Below are positions 544 through 53,453 of a stretch of 53,453 nt of DNA, piece by piece (the first letter of the stretch is position 1; each line of letters opens with the position of its first letter). The DNA is from Escherichia virus TH37. The notes beneath the pieces were generated by a model. It saw only the letters and a program-made list of their open reading frames with translations, was not told where the DNA came from and made no database searches. Both the position numbers and the translations under genes were made by a program. The stretch is taken from the sequence record MT446409.1. The stretch is one strand, 5' to 3'.

Positions 544-1217
544 TCCACATGGTACTCAGTATCTTGCAGGAATTCGATTGCAGCTTTCAGAGTCTTGGAT
601 GGCTTAACTTTGCCACCTTTAACGAAAGGCTTGCGACGAGATTCAGTTGTTACACGCTCAGTGAATGGAACTGAGGTATCTTTGGTTGTAACCAGTTCAA
701 CCCATGCGTCAGTCATCTGGAACGATTTGTCCTCGTTCATGGTGATGAAGCCAAAGTGCTTAGCTAAACCAATGAGGTTGATAGCTGGGTCAACATAGTG
801 CATTGACTTTAAGTCGTTGTTGTAACGGTTGGCATCAGCAATAGAAGAAGAAGCCAGCTCAACCATTGCAATGGCTGGGACAACATCATCACGAGTGAAT
901 GAGGTCATCATCTTGAAGATTGCGAGAGCAGCAATAGCACAGGTCTGAGGCTGCATATAGTTCTGTTTCTCTTTGGCACGGTATACCAGAGCCGTGATAG
1001 CAGGGACAACGGATTTGATAGTTTGAGTTGAGATAGTTGTCATTTTGCGAGTCTCCAAGTTAGTTTCGGTTTTAGTTTCGGATTGTGTAGCAGCAGTGAT
1101 TTCGTTAACCATTTGGTTGCAACGGTCCATCGTATCAAGCACGTCTTTCCAACCGTGGCCTTCTTCTTTTAAGCGAGCGCCATCAGCAGCCAGTGCACGA
1201 TATTCTTCATTAGTCAT
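1..1217 (-). CDS. T7-like single-subunit RNA polymerase, N-terminal part (gene runs off the window start; continues at 52013-53453 if the genome is circular)
   Basis: Minus-strand frame open from 1289 to 1; contains ...FADNRGRLYHVACAGPNPQ matching T7 RNAP FPYNMDWRGRVYAV; ATG at 1217 has GGAGA 5 nt upstream (alternative ATG at 1044); motif A-like LDAQYSGTQYL at window edge. Confidence 0.8.
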   Translation of the reverse strand, partial: MTNEEYRALAADGARLKEEGHGWKDVLDTMDRCNQMVNEITAATQSETKTETNLETRKMTTISTQTIKSVVPAITALVYRAKEKQNYMQPQTCAIAALAIFKMMTSFTRDDVVPAIAMVELASSSIADANRYNNDLKSMHYVDPAINLIGLAKHFGFITMNEDKSFQMTDAWVELVTTKDTSVPFTERVTTESRRKPFVKGGKVKPSKTLKAAIEFLQDTEYHVETEMVRIIQSMIEQRTYGGLQMPEAIQTELHVWNNAVAMVGQDTLFSDYFADNRGRLYHVACAGPNPQSSDFARCLYSHNVENIVKKFNEDGSTTIAYNMFMAELEDISGGDWTSAKRLTYVAQNPAGSLARMMNMPKAERPSTPFTYVRLALDWLKVETTGECDTRLGFCLDAQYSGTQY

Positions 1218-3863: not shown

Positions 3864-4393
3864 TAGATTTCATTCCAGTCGATTGTTTTAGTTAAGTCCA
3901 TTCGAGACACAAGGATGCGCTTCTTCTTCAATTCAAGAAGAGCTTCTTCATCACCTTTCTCTTGCATCTTGAGTTCAAACACACTATCAAGCAGAGCAAT
4001 CTGTTCTGATAAACGAGAGATTACTTTACCCTGACGGAACTTGTTGAACAGTATGCGGTTCTCAGTGTGAGGTACAAACTTCTTACCATCAAACTTCCAG
4101 AAGTGCATTTCTTCTGCAACACCTTCTGGTAGGACATCCAATTCAACTATGTTTCCACCTAGCGGCGTAGCCACAGTGTCACCAGGTCCAAAGTCGATAT
4201 GACGAATAGAGCCATCATTCTCATACACGACCTTGGCAGTTCCATCTTTAAGACTCTTTCGAATCTTATACCAGCACTTACCATTCTCGTCACACCCGAA
4301 GATAATTTTGTGCTCATCCTTAAGCACTTGCTGGTTTTCAGTTAAGTTTGTGTTCTCAACAAACCCTTTATAGTTACACAGAATAGCTGTCAT
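3863..4393 (-). CDS. Putative tail fiber assembly protein/chaperone
   Basis: 176 aa ORF immediately downstream of tail fiber genes; positional inference only. Confidence 0.35.
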   Translation of the reverse strand: MTAILCNYKGFVENTNLTENQQVLKDEHKIIFGCDENGKCWYKIRKSLKDGTAKVVYENDGSIRHIDFGPGDTVATPLGGNIVELDVLPEGVAEEMHFWKFDGKKFVPHTENRILFNKFRQGKVISRLSEQIALLDSVFELKMQEKGDEEALLELKKKRILVSRMDLTKTIDWNEI

Positions 4394-5726
4394 ACCATGT
4401 TCCGTTCATATATTTCTGCAATTTACGACGACCAACGTAGTCAATAAATTCATCAGAAGTTGTGTTATAGCACGATGTAATGACCCAACCAGATTCATCG
4501 CGGTAGCCAGGGCCACGCCATGCAGCAGTTTCTTGGTAGGATGCTAAACGAATGTCACTCATGAAATAGGCATTGACCCAATTCTCTCGTGCAAATCGGA
4601 AAGGACCGCCATTACCAGTGTAGTCGATGTTACCATCAAGGCCGAACATCCAGTTATGCACTGCTCCGTCATCGCTTCGGCGTGAAATTACAGGACTTGA
4701 GAAGTCCGATGTTCTGGTGTATGCACCAAAGGAAATCCAAGAGCCGTACCCGTAACCAGTTGTGATTGTGTTCAGTGTTACGATTGGGACCCATGAGTCT
4801 GGTGCAACATTACAACTGTATACACCATAAGGGACGTTGCCATCTGCCTCCTGACCCCAACCACGACCCCAAGTTATGCCGCGATACTGCCCAAGCAAAT
4901 CAAGCTTAAAGTCCCGACCAGTGCCAAGTAACTTAAGTTGGTTGTGCCCTTCTGCGATAAGACGTGCAGTAAAATCCAAACCAGAGTTTGCATAGTGGAA
5001 GTCAATATATGGAAGGTTATTGTACAACTCTATTGCACCAACTTCTGTGATTCGGTCACGCTGATTAACTCGTGCAAGCTCTCTCCAGTTGGCCCAATTC
5101 TGCGAGGCATCTAGTGTACGACTTCGAACCCAAACGTTTCCGTAAATTGATGTATAACGTTGCTGAACATTGTATGCAGTTGGAAGAACTTCCAAAGTAC
5201 CAGCCGCTGCCGCAGGGTATCCACCAGCAGAGCCAGCAACAGTATCAGACTCTTGATAGTAGATACCAACATCTGATGCACTTGTAAGCGCATTAATGTT
5301 CATGGTTCCGGCATTCTTGCAAGTCATTACAGCATGTGCTATATACGACCTGCCACCAGATGGACCTTGCGAGTAGTACATAATCGGAGGTCGTGCTGCA
5401 TCACCATGCGATACTAGGATTGTCGCTTTGCTGATATCAGACACGCCAAGAACAGTAATGATTACATACGCACCGCTTATAGAAGATAAGTCCCACCTCT
5501 GTAACTCTGGGGGAATGTTGACAGCAGAACTCATTTCAACATACAGAACCTCACCGTTTACAAAAGTGTAGGTATTGAAGTTGAAGTTTCTTACAAATGC
5601 TGTGGTTGGAATCTGGGCATTCTTTTGTCCAACAGTGATTACCTCACCACGAGCAGTACCTGCATTTAAGAATGCAGCAGACTTTAAGGCGGCAACTAAG
5701 CCGCCAAATGACCAACCTTTAGCCAT
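4374..5726 (-). CDS. Tail fiber protein (distal/receptor-binding part)
   Basis: 450 aa, Gly/Tyr/Ser-rich, last of three consecutive fiber-like genes. Confidence 0.5.
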   Translation of the reverse strand: MAKGWSFGGLVAALKSAAFLNAGTARGEVITVGQKNAQIPTTAFVRNFNFNTYTFVNGEVLYVEMSSAVNIPPELQRWDLSSISGAYVIITVLGVSDISKATILVSHGDAARPPIMYYSQGPSGGRSYIAHAVMTCKNAGTMNINALTSASDVGIYYQESDTVAGSAGGYPAAAAGTLEVLPTAYNVQQRYTSIYGNVWVRSRTLDASQNWANWRELARVNQRDRITEVGAIELYNNLPYIDFHYANSGLDFTARLIAEGHNQLKLLGTGRDFKLDLLGQYRGITWGRGWGQEADGNVPYGVYSCNVAPDSWVPIVTLNTITTGYGYGSWISFGAYTRTSDFSSPVISRRSDDGAVHNWMFGLDGNIDYTGNGGPFRFARENWVNAYFMSDIRLASYQETAAWRGPGYRDESGWVITSCYNTTSDEFIDYVGRRKLQKYMNGTWYDSYSV

Positions 5727-22661: not shown

Positions 22662-22705
22662 TAAATTTATTCCATTAGGCGCAGATTATTCTACGCCAAT
22701 TAAAC

Positions 22706-23472
22706 TTAAGGGTGCGTAATGGTGATTGCTTTAGTAGCAGTTACACCAGATGCAGTCTTATGAGTTGCTTTGATTGTTGCAGAGGTCGCAGTACCAATCG
22801 TCGCAGTTGCAACAGTTACAGTACCATTGGCCGCCACAGTTACTCCAGTGACCGCTGGGTCAACAGTGAAGTTGTAGTCACTTGCAACAGAGTTTGCAAA
22901 CGTAAACAGTTTATCAACAGTTACGGTAGCATTTGTAGTTGAAGCATCAGCAGTCACAGCCGCCGCTACCGCAGTAACGGTCGGTGTTGGAGGTGGCGTT
23001 ACGACTTTGGGACTACGTTAATCATGACCGGAACAACATCACCAGCAGCAGCCGGATAGCGAAGTGCAGTCAGGTTGGTTGCCTTAGTATAGCCAGCGCC
23101 AACACCACCAAATTGACCAGTGGCAGATACGCCAATGTCTTTATCGGTGATTGCAGTAACCAGTTTAACCATGATTGGGCCAGACAGCATAACACCCAGA
23201 GGCCAGCCAGCTTTGATTGCAACAGTGCCGTCACCAGGACGAGTTGCGGATTCGATGTTAATCTGGCGCATAGTAATGCCCAGAACAGTGCCGTCGGCTT
23301 CAATACCAGGCTTAACCTGATTAGAAGCAGTACCCTGAACAACAGCTAAACCAAAGTTAGCCATTTCAGTTTCAGCATTGAAAGTCAGGCGCTGAGAGTT
23401 AGTGGTAGCCAGGCCATATTGCTCACCCGCATATGCTGCACCAGTATTAATAGACCAATCTTGCTTTGGCAT
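22706..23472 (-). CDS. Frameshift-extended form of the decoration-like protein with C-terminal Ig-like (Big_2-type) domain, via -1 frameshift at 23002-23008
   Basis: C_CCA_AAG heptamer; -1 frame opens just after an in-frame TAA and runs ~98 Thr/Ala/Val-rich codons (TVTVDKLFTFANSVASDYNFTVDPAVTGVTV...) to 22706. Confidence 0.5.
22999..23472 (-). CDS. Putative head decoration/capsid accessory protein (short form)
   Basis: 157 aa immediately upstream of major capsid gene; ends ...VVPKS with CCCAAAG slippery site 2 codons before stop. Confidence 0.4.
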   Translation of the reverse strand: MPKQDWSINTGAAYAGEQYGLATTNSQRLTFNAETEMANFGLAVVQGTASNQVKPGIEADGTVLGITMRQINIESATRPGDGTVAIKAGWPLGVMLSGPIMVKLVTAITDKDIGVSATGQFGGVGAGYTKATNLTALRYPAAAGDVVPVMINVVPKS

Positions 23473-33413: not shown

Positions 33414-33686
33414 TTAATCCACTTGCAACATTGCAAGGCGGAAGTCATATCCAACTAATGCTTCGGACAGCTCTTCAATTGAAGTTGTTGCCGAGATTAA
33501 AGTTTGGAGGTTTTTGAATGTCTCATCGTTAAATGCTTGAGACTGTGGGTCAGACGAAGCGAACACCTCGCCCTTAATCTTTTCAAGGAACGCCATTACG
33601 GCGTCCTTTGCTGGAACTTCGGAATCAGCAGCAAACATATGGTGCTCTAATTCCTGCATATCGAAAATAGAATATACAGTTTGCAT
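33414..33686 (-). CDS. Hypothetical protein
   Basis: 90 aa co-oriented ORF. Confidence 0.3.
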   Translation of the reverse strand: MQTVYSIFDMQELEHHMFAADSEVPAKDAVMAFLEKIKGEVFASSDPQSQAFNDETFKNLQTLISATTSIEELSEALVGYDFRLAMLQVD

Positions 33687-40991: not shown

Positions 40992-41068
40992 TTGTATATA
41001 CCTTATATTAAATAGTTTTGCACGCCACGGTGACGTGACTTAGATAAAATTAAAGAGCCTTTCTCTTT

Positions 41069-41084
41069 TCACATCCAATTAATG
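41069..41084 (-). promoter_or_regulatory. Conserved phage promoter-like motif, copy 2
   Basis: Plus TCACATCCAATTAATG. Confidence 0.5.
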
Positions 41085-42688: not shown

Positions 42689-43237
42689 CGTAGCCCAACC
42701 GTTTGTGTCAATTCTGGATAACTGCATTGGCGAAGGGTTACTCCCGTTAGGGTGCGACCTGCGTATCATAACTGCGCCGCAGCCTGGCAAGCTACGGAGG
42801 TCACAGAGGCTTTGTAACCCTTCCCAATACATTCACCCAAATCCCAGCGTTGGCATAGCTGGTGGCTTGGTTTTGTGCGGATTATGCCACTCTAAGCCCT
42901 GTTTGTCCGACTTCCTCGGAGCACCAGCAGCTTGTGGCACAAACCTATTTTCGAATGACAAGCATACAGATGAGTCTGCCGCATCACGGCTCCTGCTGTT
43001 CTATTGGCCCCAAAAGCCTCAGTATCTTGTACCAATTCATCCCAATACATACACAACTATATACAATAGCGAACTATCTGCGAATAAGTATTCTGGCCCT
43101 ATGGCCTAAGTTAAAGTTAATAGTGTGTGATGGAAACATTCCATCGAAAATAACTTTGTAGAATGAGTCGAACATTCTCGCACGATGCGGCCGCAACGGT
43201 CTACCGAGTTACAAAGTTATTATCTGATGTTGTTTCT

Positions 43238-43253
43238 TCAATTCCAACTAATG
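43238..43253 (-). promoter_or_regulatory. Conserved phage promoter-like motif, copy 3
   Basis: Plus TCAATTCCAACTAATG. Confidence 0.45.
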
Positions 43254-43353: not shown

Positions 43354-43378
43354 GCCTTTCTTCCCTAAGTGGTCAGAA

Positions 43379-43394
43379 TCAAATCCCACTAATG
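43379..43394 (-). promoter_or_regulatory. Conserved phage promoter-like motif, copy 4
   Basis: Plus TCAAATCCCACTAATG. Confidence 0.45.
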
Positions 43395-46044: not shown

Positions 46045-46749
46045 TTACAGCTTCTTAATAAGCTCTGCTGATTTGCTTGCGGCAGCTTTCATCTCATCGC
46101 GTGCGGCTTTAACTATTGATGCCTTGTCCACGCGAATGTTGCAGTTTCCGATTGCAATCTTGCCATCTTCTGTTGGTGCAAGTTGCTGTAGGTCCAGCAT
46201 TTGCTCCAGCTTTTGCAGAAGAATACGTTGTGCTTCGATTGCATTTTGGATATTTAATGTTTCCATGTTATTCTCCACAGGAAGGAATACTGGATTTGCT
46301 ATTGGAGTTATTTGGTTGGAAAACTCAATTGTTGGAGTTTCCTGTGCTGGTGGCGTATTAACAATGTGGACTATGCGGTTAGGTGAAAAGTCAAAGTATC
46401 CTGTTACATGGGTTAATCGAACCACATTTTCAGGTATTTCCCCAAGGTCTTTAACTTCCTTTATCTCAAAGAATCTGATTCCGTAAGATAAGATGTTTCC
46501 AGGTCGTACTTCATGCGCCAATACTGCACGGGTTGTGGTAGGCTTTATAAAAGATTCTGTAGTGGGACGTTTTTCCAATACTCTGACTATACGGCCCAAC
46601 TCAAAATTAAAGAATCCGCCAGCGTGTTGTAGCTGAACTACGTCACTAAGTCTGTTGATGTGTACAATCGGATACCCTCTACCATCATGAAATACAACAT
46701 CGCCAGTTTTGACCAAATTTGCAGGTATTTCAACAGCATTAATTGCCAT
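46045..46749 (-). CDS. Hypothetical protein with two tandem repeat domains and C-terminal coiled coil
   Basis: Internal duplication (...RIVRVLE / ...RIVHIVN segments); ATG at 46749 has GAGG SD. Confidence 0.4.
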   Translation of the reverse strand: MAINAVEIPANLVKTGDVVFHDGRGYPIVHINRLSDVVQLQHAGGFFNFELGRIVRVLEKRPTTESFIKPTTTRAVLAHEVRPGNILSYGIRFFEIKEVKDLGEIPENVVRLTHVTGYFDFSPNRIVHIVNTPPAQETPTIEFSNQITPIANPVFLPVENNMETLNIQNAIEAQRILLQKLEQMLDLQQLAPTEDGKIAIGNCNIRVDKASIVKAARDEMKAAASKSAELIKKL

Positions 46750-46871
46750 TATATTCCTCACGCATTGCTGAACAGTGCTTACACACCCAAAAGGTTACAT
46801 AATCGTTTGTATGAGAAATCTCCCAATTATGTAGCCCTATAAAACATAAAATTTTCATAGGGCATCTCCAA

Positions 46872-47243
46872 TTAGAATGGAATGTCGTCGTCGAAGTCTT
46901 TCGGCTCGTTCGGGTTATAATTGCTCTGCTGTTGTTGAGCAGGAGCTTGCTGTTGTGCAGAAGGTTGCTGGCGTTGCTGTTGCTGTTGAGCGGCAGCTTG
47001 AGGTTGAGCTTTGGCTTTAGCTTTCTCTTCACGCTTACGCATCATTTCATCAACCTGCTCTTGAGTCATGATGGTGAGTGCCAGTGAGGTAAATTCATTA
47101 TCGTTGGCTTGCTTGTTCCAACCAGACACCCAATACCAGATTCCGTCAACGTTAATACGTCCACGAATGTCAGGATGTTTTGGGTCTTTCTTGAAGCCGT
47201 TAGGACCGATAATGCCAGTGTTTACATCTGAATATTGTGCCAT
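46872..47243 (-). CDS. Small Gln-rich protein ending in the bacterial SSB C-terminal tip DFDDDIPF
   Basis: 123 aa; last 8 residues identical to the E. coli SSB tip as recalled; low-complexity Q/A-rich linker; short N-terminal domain. Confidence 0.5.
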   Translation of the reverse strand: MAQYSDVNTGIIGPNGFKKDPKHPDIRGRINVDGIWYWVSGWNKQANDNEFTSLALTIMTQEQVDEMMRKREEKAKAKAQPQAAAQQQQQRQQPSAQQQAPAQQQQSNYNPNEPKDFDDDIPF

Positions 47244-47315
47244 GATTAAGATTCTCTTAAGTTAATTACAGTTTAAGTTTCAGTGACATTGCTAACCACG
47301 GAATAGCTTTGTCTC

Positions 47316-47331
47316 TCACATCCAACTAATT
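47316..47331 (-). promoter_or_regulatory. Conserved phage promoter-like motif, copy 5
   Basis: Plus TCACATCCAACTAATT. Confidence 0.5.
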
Positions 47332-47368
47332 GGATTATTCGGGTACACTCGTAAATGCACCCTGATAA

Positions 47369-47821
47369 TCATTTACAGATAAATACCGGAATATCCATCT
47401 GGTTTAAATACTTAAGCATAAGTGGACGTACTTGTGTTGCATAGTCCAGCTGCCCATTTCCACAACCAAGTGGGGTTATTGCAAGTGAGGTTATTCCACA
47501 GCGTTTGTAGGTTTCCACCAACTTAACAAGGCCCTGTTCAATCCACCCAAGTTGAGAAGGATTTTGCCAATGTTGTTTTGTTGGGAAACATAGCCCAAGA
47601 CGGCCATCATTAAGACGCTGCAACAGCAATTGCCCAATCTTGAATCCACGGTTGCACGCAGTTCTGTAGTTCTTAAATGCTTCTGGATAGCGGCGTTTAT
47701 ACTCTTTTGCAACACCAGCACCCATTACGCCAACAAGATTCACAGTACAAGTTACAGTTTGCGCATCCACAGTAAATACGTTGGCCTTACCTTCAAATAC
47801 GATTGGCATAATCTTCTCCAA
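47369..47821 (-). CDS. Macrodomain protein (ADP-ribose binding/processing)
   Basis: 150 aa; VNLVGVMGAGVAKEYKRRYPE and ITSLAITPLGCGNGQLDY match macrodomain signatures. Confidence 0.65.
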   Translation of the reverse strand: MEKIMPIVFEGKANVFTVDAQTVTCTVNLVGVMGAGVAKEYKRRYPEAFKNYRTACNRGFKIGQLLLQRLNDGRLGLCFPTKQHWQNPSQLGWIEQGLVKLVETYKRCGITSLAITPLGCGNGQLDYATQVRPLMLKYLNQMDIPVFICK

Positions 47822-47831
47822 AAGTTGTTAT

Positions 47832-47847
47832 TCACATTCAACTAATG
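47832..47847 (-). promoter_or_regulatory. Conserved phage promoter-like motif, copy 6
   Basis: Plus TCACATTCAACTAATG, ~15 nt upstream of macrodomain gene SD. Confidence 0.5.
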
Positions 47848-47888
47848 TTAGATTAATCAGGAACACTCAATGAATGCTCCTTGTTAAT

Positions 47889-48086
47889 TTAACAGGATTT
47901 ACAATCGTTTATGAACTTTCTACGCAATTTGCGCACTTGCTTTTTGGTCGGCTTCGCTGGAAAGAATTTGCATTCGACGTTGTGCCAAGGACTGCATTCT
48001 TCACCAACAAACCACAGAGTCCATCCAGCAAATATGTTCATAGGACTGTGGCTTTTGTGGCTATACAAATGTGTATTTACACGCAT
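47889..48086 (-). CDS. Hypothetical small protein
   Basis: 65 aa co-oriented ORF. Confidence 0.25.
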   Translation of the reverse strand: MRVNTHLYSHKSHSPMNIFAGWTLWFVGEECSPWHNVECKFFPAKPTKKQVRKLRRKFINDCKSC

Positions 48087-48373
48087 TACATCACCTTTGA
48101 AATAGGAATCGGGTCGATATTTGATTCAGGTTTATACCAACTTACTTCACCAGAATCTTCCACAAGCTCCCACAAATTGGAGAATGTACGATAGAGTAGA
48201 ACATTGTTATCATCAATAACGACAAAACCCAAAGGAGACTGAATATACGCACCTAATGTACCACTGTTTCGAGGAACTCCGTCACCACGACCTGCGACGA
48301 TTTTGTACTTCTTACCTTTGGTAAAGCTGGAATTAGTTTCACCAACATACTTAACGATTGAATTCTTGTTCAT
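48086..48373 (-). CDS. Hypothetical protein
   Basis: 95 aa. Confidence 0.35.
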   Translation of the reverse strand: MNKNSIVKYVGETNSSFTKGKKYKIVAGRGDGVPRNSGTLGAYIQSPLGFVVIDDNNVLLYRTFSNLWELVEDSGEVSWYKPESNIDPIPISKVM

Positions 48374-48657
48374 TTCTTAATTTTCTCCCATTTAGACAAA
48401 CCACCCTCAAGACTGAATACGCGGTTACAACCAGATTCATCTTTAATGGCAAATTGAGTTCCTGTCAGTTGAATTGGCTCAAGCGAACCAAACAACACCT
48501 TAGGTTTTGACAAGCTGGTGGCAAGAACCACATAAACTTTGCTTGGGCAAATATCAAAAGCAAAGTCACGAGTGTAAACTAAGTCACCAACCTTCAAATA
48601 TGCTGGTAAGAAGCGACCTGTGGCTGGGTCACGTTGTAGACGAGTACGCTGTTTCAT
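48370..48657 (-). CDS. Hypothetical protein
   Basis: 95 aa. Confidence 0.35.
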   Translation of the reverse strand: MKQRTRLQRDPATGRFLPAYLKVGDLVYTRDFAFDICPSKVYVVLATSLSKPKVLFGSLEPIQLTGTQFAIKDESGCNRVFSLEGGLSKWEKIKK

Positions 48658-48687
48658 AAATGCTCCGAGTTAATTAATAATATTCAG

Positions 48688-48714
48688 CAACCACTCTCAT
48701 TACAAAAGTGGTTG
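48688..48714 (-). terminator. Terminator-like hairpin
   Basis: Perfect 8-bp stem CAACCACT/AGTGGTTG with 11-nt loop between two early genes. Confidence 0.3.
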
Positions 48715-48720
48715 AGGAAA

Positions 48721-48951
48721 TTATTCAATTTCTTCCCAGGACCAGACGCTACCTTCCAAGGGAACACTCTCTCCCGCAGGCCAATATGGGGTGCCATAGT
48801 AAGTTCTGCGGTCACTGTCTTCTGTGATGTTTATGCGAGTCTGCACTCCATCCTCGTCTTTAATAGTTACAAGCTCTCCCTCAATAATATCTCCAACCTT
48901 CGGAGAATACTCAGATGAAGAAGAAGATTCTACACATTTAAATTTAGCCAT
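48721..48951 (-). CDS. Hypothetical small acidic protein (paralog A)
   Basis: 76 aa starting MAKFKCVESS. Confidence 0.35.
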   Translation of the reverse strand: MAKFKCVESSSSSEYSPKVGDIIEGELVTIKDEDGVQTRINITEDSDRRTYYGTPYWPAGESVPLEGSVWSWEEIE

Positions 48952-49178
48952 TATTGAAGTACACCTTGTTCACAAATATCTGCAAATTCTGCACGATGGT
49001 CACGCTGCCATGTCCAGAATGCACCATTCATAGGAACGACAGCACCTTTACGAAATGCTGGAGAAATGCTTTCAGCAGATTTGGTTACTTTAAATTCCAA
49101 AGGCGAAATAGCTTCACCTTCAATGATTAAGCCAACTGGAACGTAGTCTTTGTTGGAAGCAACACATTTAAATTTCAT
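48951..49178 (-). CDS. Hypothetical small protein (paralog B)
   Basis: 75 aa starting MKFKCVASN. Confidence 0.35.
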   Translation of the reverse strand: MKFKCVASNKDYVPVGLIIEGEAISPLEFKVTKSAESISPAFRKGAVVPMNGAFWTWQRDHRAEFADICEQGVLQ

Positions 49179-49180
49179 GG

Positions 49181-49363
49181 TTATCCTCTTGGTGGAATAT
49201 TTCCACTGTTATCTATAAGTTTACCGCGATAAATATTTAAACCACAATCTACACAGAATGCGTTATCCAGAACTACGGGACCATACATTCCTACAGCTTC
49301 ATGAGCCACATGGTCTACATTATTGCTGCCACACTTTGGGCAAACAACATCATCCTCATTCAT
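49181..49363 (-). CDS. Zinc-ribbon protein
   Basis: 60 aa; CPKCG ... CVDCG. Confidence 0.4.
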   Translation of the reverse strand: MNEDDVVCPKCGSNNVDHVAHEAVGMYGPVVLDNAFCVDCGLNIYRGKLIDNSGNIPPRG

Positions 49364-49616
49364 GGTATAAAACTCCTAATTCAGATTCTAATTTAAATTC
49401 ACGGAAGAAATCCATTGTTACAAATCGGACTTTACCTTCGTCATCAACTACGTTACAGGAAATGTCGGAGTGGACCATACGGCCCAACTTCAAAGCAACT
49501 CCTGACAGGTTTGCTTCGCCAGTGCCAGAAATCACTTCATAGATTTTATATGGTGTAAAGCCGCTTAAAGAGTTATTACGGCTTGGGACAATCATCATGC
49601 CTGTTTTAGTAGCCAT
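49356..49616 (-). CDS. Hypothetical protein
   Basis: Likely starts at internal MATKTG of the 103-aa ORF. Confidence 0.3.
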   Translation of the reverse strand: MATKTGMMIVPSRNNSLSGFTPYKIYEVISGTGEANLSGVALKLGRMVHSDISCNVVDDEGKVRFVTMDFFREFKLESELGVLYHE

Positions 49617-50055
49617 AATAACTCCAATATTAAAAGTACATGAATGCGCCAATAGTAAGTAGCACAAGTGGGAACATCAGAATACAGAATACTAATTTCT
49701 TTACGATATCCATTATTTCACCAGGAAGTAGAGAACAAGTGCAACACCAACACATGCAATGATTGTTGGCATATAATTATCAATTTTACGATATTTACGT
49801 TCGACTGGCTTCTTGCCTTCGATGGCATTCATCAGTTCTTGATGATTAATCTGCTGCATTAATGTGTTGAATTGCTGGTCGTTCATTTTCCACTCCGAGC
49901 AGCATCAAGCTGTTCTTCAAGAAGATTAATGTGTTGGCCCAAGAATAAGACCATTTCACGAGAAATTACAACAGATTCGATTTTCGGATTCTCTGCAATT
50001 TGCTTAACATCTTGCATGAAACTCCAAAGGCTTACAACTTCGTCTTTGAATTGGC

Positions 50056-50244
50056 TCACTTTGCCTCCAGAATTTGATTTAAAGAGCTGAACACGATTTC
50101 TTCATGTTCATCAGGTGTACATGCGTTGATGTAGTCAAAGTCATAACCAACAAACTTCTCCGCCCACTGCTGTAAACGAAGTAAAGAATTGAAGTACAAA
50201 CTTTGCTCTACACCATTTAATTTAAAGTAGACGATGAAGTCCAT
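50056..50244 (-). CDS. Hypothetical protein
   Basis: 62 aa. Confidence 0.3.
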   Translation of the reverse strand: MDFIVYFKLNGVEQSLYFNSLLRLQQWAEKFVGYDFDYINACTPDEHEEIVFSSLNQILEAK

Positions 50245-50246
50245 TG

Positions 50247-50489
50247 TTAACCCCTTACTTTCAGGAAATCTGGATGTGCGGCAGTTGCCACAACTTTGTG
50301 ATGTTTGTCATTCTGGATTGCTTGCCAAACATATTCAGGATATGCGGCATTATTCCACACCAGCTTGTTTTCGTAAATTGATGTATAAGATATTAAGTCT
50401 GCCAACATTATTGCTCTGGTTTCAGTATTAACCAAAGCATGAGAAACAACACCATCACGATTGGTATATTGATACAGTGCATAATTCAT
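50247..50489 (-). CDS. Hypothetical protein
   Basis: 80 aa. Confidence 0.3.
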   Translation of the reverse strand: MNYALYQYTNRDGVVSHALVNTETRAIMLADLISYTSIYENKLVWNNAAYPEYVWQAIQNDKHHKVVATAAHPDFLKVRG

Positions 50490-50750
50490 TTAGAATCCCT
50501 CATTATATCCAGCAGTGTTACGAAGAGTCACTTCAACATCTTCGTCATCAGGAATTAATTCGACTTCAATATTGACAACAATATTGTCACTAAAAGTACA
50601 TGCTTTACTTGAATCAAAGAACTTTACAGCATTATATTTATCTGATTCATCTACTTTAATCCACTTCACAGAACGAACAGTGAAGATTTGACCATCTTGT
50701 AGGTCTTTGAAACAAGCAGCTTTAATCACAGTATCCATTTTATTCTCCAA
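50490..50750 (-). CDS. Hypothetical acidic protein (first gene of early array)
   Basis: 86 aa. Confidence 0.35.
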   Translation of the reverse strand: MENKMDTVIKAACFKDLQDGQIFTVRSVKWIKVDESDKYNAVKFFDSSKACTFSDNIVVNIEVELIPDDEDVEVTLRNTAGYNEGF

Positions 50751-50761
50751 AGTTAAAAGAA

Positions 50762-50827
50762 AACTCCCTACAGAACGGTTGTGGAGGTCTTGTATTACCT
50801 TAATCCACCTTAAAGTTGTAGGGAGTT
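50762..50827. repeat. Perfect 11-bp inverted repeat flanking a 44-nt spacer
   Basis: AACTCCCTACA at 50762-50772 and TGTAGGGAGTT at 50817-50827. Confidence 0.6.
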
Positions 50828-51029
50828 ATATAGTATTCCTGTGTGTGCCGCCATCATGGACTTCCTAGTCTGGTGGGCGCGTTGCAATCCAGCAATAAAC
50901 CACACGTTTTTCACAGGCTATATATGTGACACATAAAGTGCCGAAAACTACAATGATTAGCTTGGAGACATAATCTCTCTAAAATCTGTCACAGAATTTC
51001 AGCAGAATTTACAGAGATTTGGTCTTATT

Positions 51030-51045
51030 CACATGCAACTAATGA
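51030..51045 (-). promoter_or_regulatory. Conserved phage promoter-like motif, copy 7
   Basis: Plus TCACATGCAACTAATG. Confidence 0.5.
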
Positions 51046-51229
51046 TAAATGGACATGCTTAATTGCAACCAATTCATCTGCCAAATAGACGAATTTAGTC
51101 ACAATCAAACATGCTCATTAATTACAGGTTTGCTCCTATCTTGGAATGTATTTGGCACATCAAGAAGTGGCGCAATAGGTACGGAAAACCGACCATGTAC
51201 AGCATAATAAAACTAATTAAATAAAGGGT

Positions 51230-51950
51230 TTTATCCCAATATTGTCACAATATTTACATGCGATGATAAAGCCTTCGCTTGGCTGGAAGCCAGTATTCAT
51301 GCGGGTTGCAAGAATATTGGGTGAATATTGATACATTTATTACATGCGAAATTGGCACAAATACTGTTACAAAATTAACATGCCAGATTGGTAGACGATT
51401 GTATCTTCGAGGTGATTAGTCCTCTAACAATTCTGCCACATTCTAACATGCCAATTTGTAGCAATATTTACATGCCATACTGTAGCAATATTGCCACAAT
51501 ATTTGTTGCTCAAAATCGGGGCGGCTTCTGCGTGAAAACGAGAGGCTTTGCTCCGACTCTTCTCTTCTTTCGAATTCTGATTGAAAGAAAGAAGCATGTC
51601 CAAAAGTTCCAATATTACAAAAGTTATCTCCCGGCTTGTGGGTGGGCCTTTATAATAGGAGATGAAGCAATATTGTCGCAATTGAACATGCTTTAGTTGA
51701 AGAACAGTTTCGAATGATAATCCTACTTCACACATGGTTGCTGGAACTTTGTCCGGCCAAAGACAGGGAGTTCAATGATTGCCACATCATTACAACGCTG
51801 TGTGTTTAGTTGACATGCTGAAATGTTTCTAGAATGATTTCAACATGACATGCGGAAGACTTCTCCGTATTCTGTTACTTCACATCCAACTAATGTCGAA
51901 TATTGAAACAATATTACATGCAGCAATATTGCTTGAATATTGGGAATTAA
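51230..51950. repeat. Dense array of short repeats (palindromic CAATATTG / GCAATATTGC and TTACATGC units) in non-coding region
   Basis: About 12 ACATGC copies and at least 10 AATATTG copies within ~900 bp. Confidence 0.6.
51881..51896 (-). promoter_or_regulatory. Conserved phage promoter-like motif, copy 8
   Basis: Plus TCACATCCAACTAATG (consensus copy). Confidence 0.5.
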
Positions 51951-52012
51951 AGGATTTAATTAATAAAGAATAAAGAAAGGGCCATCACCTTTCGATGACA
52001 GCCCTGTTTCTC

Positions 52013-53453
52013 TTATTGACAGAAGTAGTAAGCGTGTTCGCTCATCAGAAGCTCTTCAGTAACAATGTTCTCATGGTACATGTTGATGCCACCAAGTTGC
52101 TTAGACAGAGATTCAAACTGATTATTGTGAACAAAGATTTCAACATAAGCAGAACGAATTACTTCCATCATTTTAGGAGCATCAGCTAAGCAGCAACGGA
52201 AACAATCGTGAATTGAAGTAAAGCCACGAAGACCAGCTTCTTTAGCTTTGACTGCAACAGTACGAGCAACCAATGCGTCAATACCTTGAATGTAGTTAAC
52301 AACGAAGGTACGCTTGAATTCTTCTTTAGTTGGGTTGGACTCACGAATGGTCCAAGGCTTATTCTCCTGAATCTGACCAAAGATAACACGAGTTTGAGAG
52401 TCAACACGAATGCTGAATGCCTCACAGATTTCACGAGATGGGAAGCAAGGCTTCATTACAACCTGACCATCAGTGTGACGATATGTGATGTACTCTTTAC
52501 CAAGTTCAACACAACGATTGTATGCAGCATCAGCAGCTTTCTCGATGAACATGTTAATCTTAGCACCCAATGCGTTATGGATTGCTTCTACACAAAGTTC
52601 AGCAAATGCTTCTGCTTTCTCAACAGGAATCTGGAGAGATGCTGTCATGTATGCAATGAAGTCAGAAGAACCAGTTAATGCAGCTTTACCACCACCATAT
52701 TGGATAGCCATGTATGGAGTTTTGATAAACTTACGACCAGCTTTCGGATTCAAGAATTCATCCATGATTTCAGCAGATGGTTTCATTGAAGAACGGTCAA
52801 GCAACTTCAACAGTTCACGAAGAGATAACTGGTATGGGTCAGATGCTTTAGTTGATGAATCAACCAGACCTGTTGCACGAGCCATCTCCATGTTACCAGC
52901 AATGAATGCCAGATATTGAGTACCAGAACATTTAGCATCTAAGCCAAAGCCTACACGAGAATCGCATTCACCTGTAGTCTCAAACTTGAACCAATCCAGA
53001 GCCAGACGAACATAAGTGAATGGCTTAGAAGGACGTTCAGCTTTAGGCATGTTCATCATGCGAGCAAGTGAACCAGCTGGATTCTGAGCAACATAAGTTA
53101 AACGCTTAGCAGAAGTCCAGTCTCCACCGGAAATATCTTCCAGCTCTGCCATAAACATGTTGTATGCAATGGTAGTAGAACCATCTTCGTTAAACTTCTT
53201 AACGATGTTCTCAACATTGTGAGAATACAAGCAACGAGCAAAGTCAGATGATTGTGGGTTAGGACCAGCACATGCTACATGGTACAGACGACCACGGTTA
53301 TCAGCAAAGTAGTCAGAGAACAGAGTGTCCTGACCAACCATTGCTACAGCATTGTTCCAAACATGGAGTTCAGTCTGGATTGCTTCTGGCATCTGCAAGC
53401 CACCATAAGTACGTTGTTCAATCATAGACTGGATGATGCGAACCATCTCAGTC
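52013..53453 (-). CDS. T7-like single-subunit RNA polymerase, C-terminal part (N-terminus beyond the window end; matches 1-1217 across the repeat)
   Basis: DNRGRLYHV, motif A-like GLDAKCSGTQYLAF, motif B-like KTPYMAIQYGGGK, motif C IHDCFRCC collinear with T7 RNAP DWRGRVYAV / DGSCSGIQHF / MTLAYGS / IHDSFGT. Confidence 0.85.
   Translation of the reverse strand, partial: TEMVRIIQSMIEQRTYGGLQMPEAIQTELHVWNNAVAMVGQDTLFSDYFADNRGRLYHVACAGPNPQSSDFARCLYSHNVENIVKKFNEDGSTTIAYNMFMAELEDISGGDWTSAKRLTYVAQNPAGSLARMMNMPKAERPSKPFTYVRLALDWFKFETTGECDSRVGFGLDAKCSGTQYLAFIAGNMEMARATGLVDSSTKASDPYQLSLRELLKLLDRSSMKPSAEIMDEFLNPKAGRKFIKTPYMAIQYGGGKAALTGSSDFIAYMTASLQIPVEKAEAFAELCVEAIHNALGAKINMFIEKAADAAYNRCVELGKEYITYRHTDGQVVMKPCFPSREICEAFSIRVDSQTRVIFGQIQENKPWTIRESNPTKEEFKRTFVVNYIQGIDALVARTVAVKAKEAGLRGFTSIHDCFRCCLADAPKMMEVIRSAYVEIFVHNNQFESLSKQLGGINMYHENIVTEELLMSEHAYYFCQ

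Follow-up and report, generated by a model that had tools for sequence, protein, structure and literature searches.

A fixed and a probably exchangeable copy of a small barrel domain lie side by side in Escherichia virus TH37

The locus and its two related genes

We analysed a stretch of 53,453 bp from Escherichia virus TH37 (record MT446409.1), referred to below as the window. About 45 records of Escherichia, Yersinia and Shigella phages, the ST32 / phiEcoM-GJ1 group, match it at 85-94% nucleotide identity. ST32 itself is placed in Chaseviridae, Cleopatravirinae, Carltongylesvirus, and its circular record has 53,092 bp. The window is therefore a whole Carltongylesvirus genome (Chaseviridae).

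All long ORFs of TH37 are on the minus strand. A T7-like RNA polymerase gene (52013..53446; PF00940, 7.5e-18) is followed by about twenty small ORFs and then by the orthologue of the gene that is annotated as SSB in ST32. Inside this block, among many small ORFs of the same strand, two genes lie next to each other on the minus strand: gene A (48951..49178), which encodes 75 aa starting MKFKCVAS, and gene B (48721..48951), which encodes 76 aa starting MAKFKCVES. The first-pass annotation had described exactly this, two adjacent ORFs of 75 and 76 aa with a common N-terminal KFKCV. A stops and B starts within TAATG (48949..48953, minus strand), where TAA and ATG share one base, and this overlap suggests that the translation of the two genes is coupled. 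The ATG of A is preceded, at a distance of five bases, by a Shine-Dalgarno-like AAGAGGA (49184..49190, minus strand), which falls within the last part of the upstream ORF. That ORF (49181..49363, minus strand), directly upstream of A, encodes a 60-aa zinc-ribbon-like CxxC...CxxC protein whose matches to Pfam zinc-ribbon and Lar-like families are weak, all of them under the gathering score.

The A/B pair is bracketed by an 86-aa protein (49356..49616, minus strand) and a 95-aa protein (48086..48373, minus strand), which are probably distant paralogues: they are 26% identical over 57 residues (E=1e-4) and have a common YKI..G.G motif, and the 95-aa protein, a member of phrog_18403, also matches phrog_18131, the family of the 86-aa protein (E=3e-4). 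Between the minus-strand genes at 48370..48657 and 48086..48373, TH37 lacks a 77-aa gene (MGKNYIEMFK...) that Bp10, SKA49, FXie-2024a, GJ1 and TH24 carry in that slot, while TH29 has a more diverged 76-aa gene there. This absence is further presence/absence mosaicism of the small-gene block. Just downstream of the block, a 150-aa Macro-domain protein is encoded (47369..47821, minus strand; PF01661, 1.3e-8; phrog_335).

The 17-nt motif CATTAGTTGGATGTGAA has nine matches in TH37, all on the coding (minus) strand, versus 0.37 expected: 1279-1295, 33444-33460, 41068-41084, 43237-43253, 43378-43394, 47315-47331, 47831-47847, 51028-51044 and 51879-51895. Repeated promoters for the phage RNA polymerase have been reported in Chaseviridae (PMC8472413), and the copies in TH37 are probably promoters of its T7-like enzyme. 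The nearest copy upstream of A and B (51028-51044, minus strand) is the likely start of their transcription unit, while the next copy downstream (47831-47847, minus strand) bounds the block. Since the A/B block lies downstream of such a promoter-like motif, its transcription may depend on the phage polymerase and may not begin at once when the DNA enters. A scan of 46500-53453 for sigma-70 promoters gave no enrichment (19 found versus 19.4 expected). The earlier suggestion that the two genes belong to an early host-takeover array is plausible from their position.

Two further elements lie near the RNA polymerase gene. A terminator-like hairpin on the minus strand (51978-52005), with a 12-bp stem of which 6 pairs are GC and then a T-rich tract, follows this gene immediately and comes just before the perfect promoter-like motif at 51879-51895. 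Further, palindromic repeats resembling AATATTG-N3-CAATATT, often followed by TACATGC, are clustered at about 50579-51945, downstream of the polymerase gene (for example at 51237-51261, 51324-51349, 51360-51385, 51452-51477, 51486-51504 and 51898-51916). The cluster looks like a set of candidate operator or regulatory sites.

The proteins A and B are 30% identical over 71 residues (BLASTP, E=4e-7). Among the 411 ORFs of at least 40 aa in the TH37 genome they are each other's only significant match, with reciprocal E-values of 2e-4 and 5e-7 by BLASTP and 4e-6 and 6e-6 by phmmer. To assess how far along the proteins the likeness extends, Smith-Waterman scores were compared with 5000 shuffles each. 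The full-length score is 85 (shuffles 23.3±4.5, maximum 56); with the N-terminal motif removed it is 67 (22.5±4.4, maximum 47), and the C-terminal halves alone score 51 (20.1±4.1, maximum 43). The similarity thus spans the whole domain of about 60 residues and exceeds every shuffle even without the N-terminus; as it is not confined to the first few residues, the paralogy of A and B that the first-pass annotation had noticed is confirmed. Both proteins also match the same two catalogued families over their full length, phrog_18786 (A 7.4e-33, B 7.4e-21) and phrog_24403 (A 2.5e-9, B 1.3e-6). At the DNA level, the two genes show no convincing similarity outside the first 17 nt, which contain the identical AAATTTAAATGTGT.

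A family HMM run over the ORFs of the genome found no third copy in TH37 (next best E=0.25). The 95-aa gene at 48370..48657 was considered as a candidate and rejected: it resembles the family only in a C-terminal LEGGLSKWEKIK, and the hhalign probability is 0.4%.

A small phage family with a predicted barrel fold

The AF2 model of A (pLDDT 84.5) is a five-stranded, apparently SH3-like barrel with strands at residues 2-8, 18-25, 28-31, 47-49 and 55-60. The barrel domain occupies residues 1-60 and is followed by a short C-terminal helix of low confidence. B has the same domain with a longer beta2-beta3 segment, and in TH37 it is very acidic (net charge -9, pI 4.3). The model of A superimposes on the BFVD model of the A orthologue of phage flopper with a TM of 0.96, and on that of the flopper B orthologue with a TM of 0.62-0.67 (probability 1.0). 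In the natural fusion P0125, both domains are modelled with the same strand pattern at a pLDDT of about 90.

Searches of databases of characterised proteins gave little. No Pfam family matches A or B at E<=1, the canonical SH3, KOW and Tudor families included; a profile search of the PDB matched nothing meaningful, and the best Foldseek match of the A model in the PDB has an E-value of 0.26. NCBIfam gives only a sub-threshold match of B to Csl4 (E=0.015, 15 bits versus a cut-off of 90). The PADLOC defence models, a set that holds no anti-defence models, match neither protein. In all, PDB, Pfam, NCBIfam and PADLOC yielded no characterised relative for the model of A. DUF7244 was also considered and set aside, with no Pfam match at E<=1 and only Foldseek matches to two DUF7244 proteins in BFVD (E 0.02-0.07, TM about 0.5-0.66).

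The family is well defined by its own sequence signature. In a six-sequence alignment ten columns besides the initiator Met are invariant (in A numbering K2, F3, C5, G16, G21, G45, P49, G52, W55 and W57), and they are still invariant in an alignment of 16 sequences. The signature consists of an N-terminal M-x-KF-K/R-C, a second strand with V/I-G-x-I/V-I/V-x-G, and a C-terminal G-x-x-V/L-P-L/M-x-G-x-x-W-x-W-E. Both proteins belong to this KFKC...WxW family: they carry all ten invariants within a domain of about 60 residues, and the family HMM scores A at 9.7e-22 and B at 1.8e-26.

A tblastn search of 50,697 phage records found single-copy relatives beyond Carltongylesvirus in four groups. The Erwinia phage Faunus (Chaseviridae, NC_047978) has a member of 68 aa (L002 2447..2653, plus strand); this ORF is unannotated, lies between gp08 and gp09 and overlaps the end of these annotated genes. 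The second group is the N4-like Gamaleyavirus, where gp02 has 97-119 aa and is, in U1G, the second gene from the left end (584..943). Klebsiella N4-like phages also carry a single-copy member, as does Veterinaerplatzvirus (Drexlerviridae), where the protein has 133-147 aa.

In larger collections the family remains small and appears to be restricted to phages. A query with A alone against a set of 5.8 billion proteins returned only 7 close relatives, so that a profile search was needed, and this gave 132 members; among 1.84 billion cluster representatives, exhaustive HMMER found only 52 clusters at E<=1e-3, and a locus search of IMG/VR gave 6 related loci. The long contigs that carry the family are about 53, 72 or 44 kb. 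In the contexts inspected the genes lie in small same-strand arrays, several of them directly downstream of a PF00940 RNA polymerase gene. In one unrelated contig (L023) a Macro gene (4068..4511) adjoins a tandem pair of the family. A record labelled as a Staphylococcus hyicus phage ('Staphylococcus phage Pel53', PP952070.1, 53.7 kb) contains orthologues of both A and B at 22675..23129; its A is 96% identical and the arrangement is like that of any Carltongylesvirus, so the host label looks doubtful.

The barrel domain always stands alone or at the N-terminus of its proteins, and across phages four or more kinds of C-terminal extension are joined to it: in gp02 of the N4-like phages an acidic helical tail, and elsewhere a tail specific to Drexlerviridae, DUF7279 (P0141, P0143), and a second copy of the domain (P0124, P0125, P0127). 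Strongly basic tails are found in P0147 and P0149 and in the DUF7279 fusions P0141 and P0143.

A variable slot and the age of the pair

Every one of the 45 Carltongylesvirus records has A, at 89-99% amino-acid identity. B is present in 39 of the 45, at 51-91% identity and in forms of 76 and 68 aa. With GenBank/RefSeq duplicates removed, the records represent about 31 distinct phages, and the six that lack B are four of these (Bp10, SKA49, TH24 and TH29). In these four, and in the metagenomic genome L008, the stop codon of A is directly followed by the spacer that elsewhere follows B. In TH25 the match to B starts only at residue 17. Other phages have more than one domain after A: FXie-2024a has three copies, namely A, B and a 78-aa C (L017 3017..3253), and in contig L018 A is followed by the fused two-domain protein P0124. 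The slot after A is thus empty, or filled by deeply different B alleles, by B and a third copy, or by a fused double domain.

Alignment of phages with A only, with A and B, and with A, B and C defines the B indel precisely: AATAAT stands on both of its sides, once where A meets B and once where B ends. Immediately behind the final gene of the family comes a conserved hairpin with an 11-bp stem, CAACCACUUUU-GUAAU-GAGAGUGGUUG (48688..48714, minus strand; RNA fold -17.9 kcal/mol, z=-3.0). It follows A in the A-only phages and B in the A-B phages, and is also found after B in the three-copy phage. Its position is kept in six phages, and the exact 52-nt element that contains it is present in L001, L007, L009 and L010. 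No U-run follows it, and the candidate roles are terminator, processing site or stabiliser. A is, from these comparisons, the fixed copy of the Chaseviridae lineage, while B is an accessory cassette between the stop codon of A and the conserved hairpin.

The two genes also diverge to different degrees. Between TH37 and ST32 the nucleotide identity is 90% in A and 67% in B, compared with 86-98% in the flanks (the upstream zinc-ribbon gene, the spacer after B and the next gene). For FXie-2024a the values are 95%, 66% and 86-99.5%, and for phiEcoM-GJ1 96.5%, 72% and 92-98%. Against Mangalitsa the pattern is reversed, with B 92.6% and A 89.5% identical. B is thus an island of divergence against three phages and not against the fourth, which indicates that B alleles and their flanks assort separately.

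Purifying selection acts on both genes, with ω≈0.15 (median pairwise dN/dS 0.14 for A and 0.15 for B). In the same pairs of phages, dS is 0.16-0.35 for A, while for B it is 1.0-2.7 or saturated. Saturation of synonymous sites is not a product of relaxed constraint or of fast protein divergence. These comparisons point to B as a cassette that is exchanged between phages and has three or more deep allele classes.

The variation among B alleles is concentrated at residues 27-52 or so, that is, the extended beta2-beta3 segment, where there is an 8-residue indel, and the next loop. The first two strands are fixed, as is the C-terminal motif GExVPLxGxVWxWEE. The net charge varies from -9, in TH37, to +4, and the pI from 4.3 to 9.6, while the A-type proteins are neutral to basic (pI 6.5-9.4). 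A role as an acidic DNA mimic was considered for B and dropped as a property of the family on account of this range of charges.

To place the two copies within the family, we built a neighbour-joining (NJ) tree of 71 non-redundant domains over 77 columns, with 200 bootstraps. The neighbours of A in this tree are Faunus, P0138 and domain 2 of P0125 (52% bootstrap). B falls together with the C copy of FXie-2024a and the domains of P0124, next to the N4-like clade, and the split of B and the N4-like sequences from the A clade is found in 68% of the replicates. Support for both groupings is modest. An exclusive clade of A and B is found in 0 of the 200 bootstraps. The phmmer cross-scores are 38.7 bits between A and Faunus, 36.8 bits between B and U1G, and 21 bits between B and A.

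The first-pass annotation had read the pair as a local duplication. Of this reading the paralogy finds support and the local duplication does not, given the restriction of the DNA similarity to the first 17 nt and the lack of any bootstrap tree that unites A and B. The survey of copy number agrees: beside a universal A, B is an optional extra and not a fresh duplicate. A recent tandem duplication within Carltongylesvirus, after which the downstream copy diverged fast, has arguments in its favour: both genes lie side by side on one strand, have nearly equal lengths and belong to one family, they agree in each of the first 14 nt beyond the start region, and tandem pairs or fusions recur (L021, L023, L006, L018, L017), so that duplication clearly happens at this locus. 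However, a protein identity of only 30% with no DNA similarity beyond the start, the grouping of the single Faunus copy and other Chaseviridae copies with A to the exclusion of B, the position of B next to the N4-like clade with cross-scores that pair A with Faunus and B with the N4-like proteins, and synonymous sites of B that are saturated between phages with near-identical flanks, for which fast protein divergence is insufficient, make such an event highly improbable.

We therefore regard A and B as, very probably, ancient paralogues, of which A is fixed and B exchangeable. The data, about 70 alignment columns, are compatible both with an old duplication and with a horizontal acquisition as the origin of B.

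The order of the types is not the same everywhere. L021, a divergent Chaseviridae contig of 52.8 kb, has the reversed order, a canonical-type copy and then an A-type copy, with the former in the slot that the 60-aa zinc-ribbon gene occupies in TH37. In L006 and L020 this canonical-type/A-type order is encoded as fusions. L023 holds a further tandem pair of the barrel family.

Possible functions and known relatives

A role in binding proteins, directed at the host, is what we tentatively propose for A and B. It is favoured because a conserved scaffold is combined with variable loops and tails, with presence/absence polymorphism and with allele exchange, and its basis is the fold class, the architecture and the evolutionary pattern. 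A and B would be co-transcribed, probably from the motif at 51028-51044, and translation of B would probably be coupled to that of A. The barrel would be produced ahead of DNA replication and serve in the cytoplasm as a compact scaffold for binding proteins. A would address a conserved partner, while B and the extra copies would address variable ones, such as strain-specific host factors or defence proteins, by means of the variable segment and the loops. Variable partners would explain why B and the extra copies are exchanged between phages. Against it, pairwise ω (about 0.15) shows no sign of positive selection in B. The complete statement, anciently diverged barrel paralogues with a fixed A and an exchangeable B in a protein-binding, host-directed role, is one that on balance we lean towards.

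A wider version can be put forward, which we consider doubtful. The barrel might be a portable targeting scaffold that neutralises strain-variable host proteins, for instance those of defence, by way of its variable segment and loops or of a tail joined to it, and might be used as such by unrelated virulent enterobacterial phages (Chaseviridae, N4-like Schitoviridae and Drexlerviridae). The slot after A could then be a counter-defence cassette site, where B, C and fused doubles are recombined in and out and help to set the host range.

The main rival on function is that A and B are small nucleic-acid-binding barrels of the KOW, Tudor or Sm-like kind that modulate transcription, RNA processing or translation of phage or host. 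The weak fold matches, many of them to RNA binders, include the KOW of Spt5, the ribosomal proteins L14e and L6e, Rpp29 and the RNA-binding OapB, and are consistent with it. So are the neutral to basic A-type proteins, the position of the genes just downstream of the phage RNA polymerase gene, and the basic tails of P0147, P0149, P0141 and P0143. However, charge is not conserved in the family, with an acidic B in TH37 and acidic tails in the N4-like phages, which argues against nucleic-acid binding as a general property and leaves this alternative unlikely.

An obligate heterodimer of A and B, in effect a pseudo-dimer of two barrels with the fusions as its 'Rosetta stone' form, fares worse: related phages do encode X-A fusions (P0125, P0127) and, behind A, a fused double (P0124), and the TAATG overlap suggests coupled synthesis, but A evidently functions without B in the four of about 31 phages that keep only A, the order of types varies (A-B in TH37, X-A in L021, L006 and L020), the model of P0125 has no confident interface (pTM 0.49, linker pLDDT 58-75), and B alleles with a pI from 4.3 to 9.6 stand beside a nearly invariant A, so that we judge it very unlikely.

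Carltongylesvirus phages are being isolated as agents against pathogenic E. coli and Yersinia, in therapy and in biocontrol; should the variable copy affect which strains are permissive, the slot would be a simple marker and a site for engineering. The finding itself is an ordinary, routine one, and modest unless the cassette affects host range. Two entries so far called 'hypothetical protein' become members of a delimited domain family, which now has a fold model, a signature motif and a distribution over three phage families, and a precise variable slot is marked, with zero to two extra copies, deep allelic classes and fixed flanks.

The existing annotations call A and B hypothetical proteins, and PHROGs already lists the family without a function; our literature search found no paper on the two genes, and the Carltongylesvirus papers treat them as hypothetical proteins. 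Compared with the annotations, the PHROGs and the papers searched, the domain limits, the fold model with its tentative SH3-like class, the division between a core A type and a canonical one, and the variable slot are new. The two catalogued families, phrog_18786 and phrog_24403, match A and B over the whole domain, and their entries hold no function, fold, architecture, two-clade structure, copy-number variation or fusions.

In fold class, the model of A may resemble the SH3-like small beta-barrels, such as eukaryotic SH3, KOW, the PhnA C-terminal domain and L14e. These have no sequence relation to A or B, and no common ligand can be deduced from the likeness. In phage N4, gp2 (586..1071) occupies the same genome position as the Gamaleyavirus family member (584..943). 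N4 gp2 is a single-stranded-DNA-binding cofactor of N4 RNAPII. Homology was considered for this identical position and rejected (hhalign probability 0.1%, E=0.47), and the likeness is one of positional replacement only.

Among the closest known systems are gp02 of Gamaleyavirus (the G7C, U1G and phi G17 group) and the Veterinaerplatzvirus proteins, which have a homologous N-terminal barrel with all the invariant residues. Like A and B, they are encoded in small-gene regions of virulent enterobacterial phages. They differ from the pair in TH37 in being single copies and in having C-terminal tails that are absent from A and B, and they are closer to B than A is.
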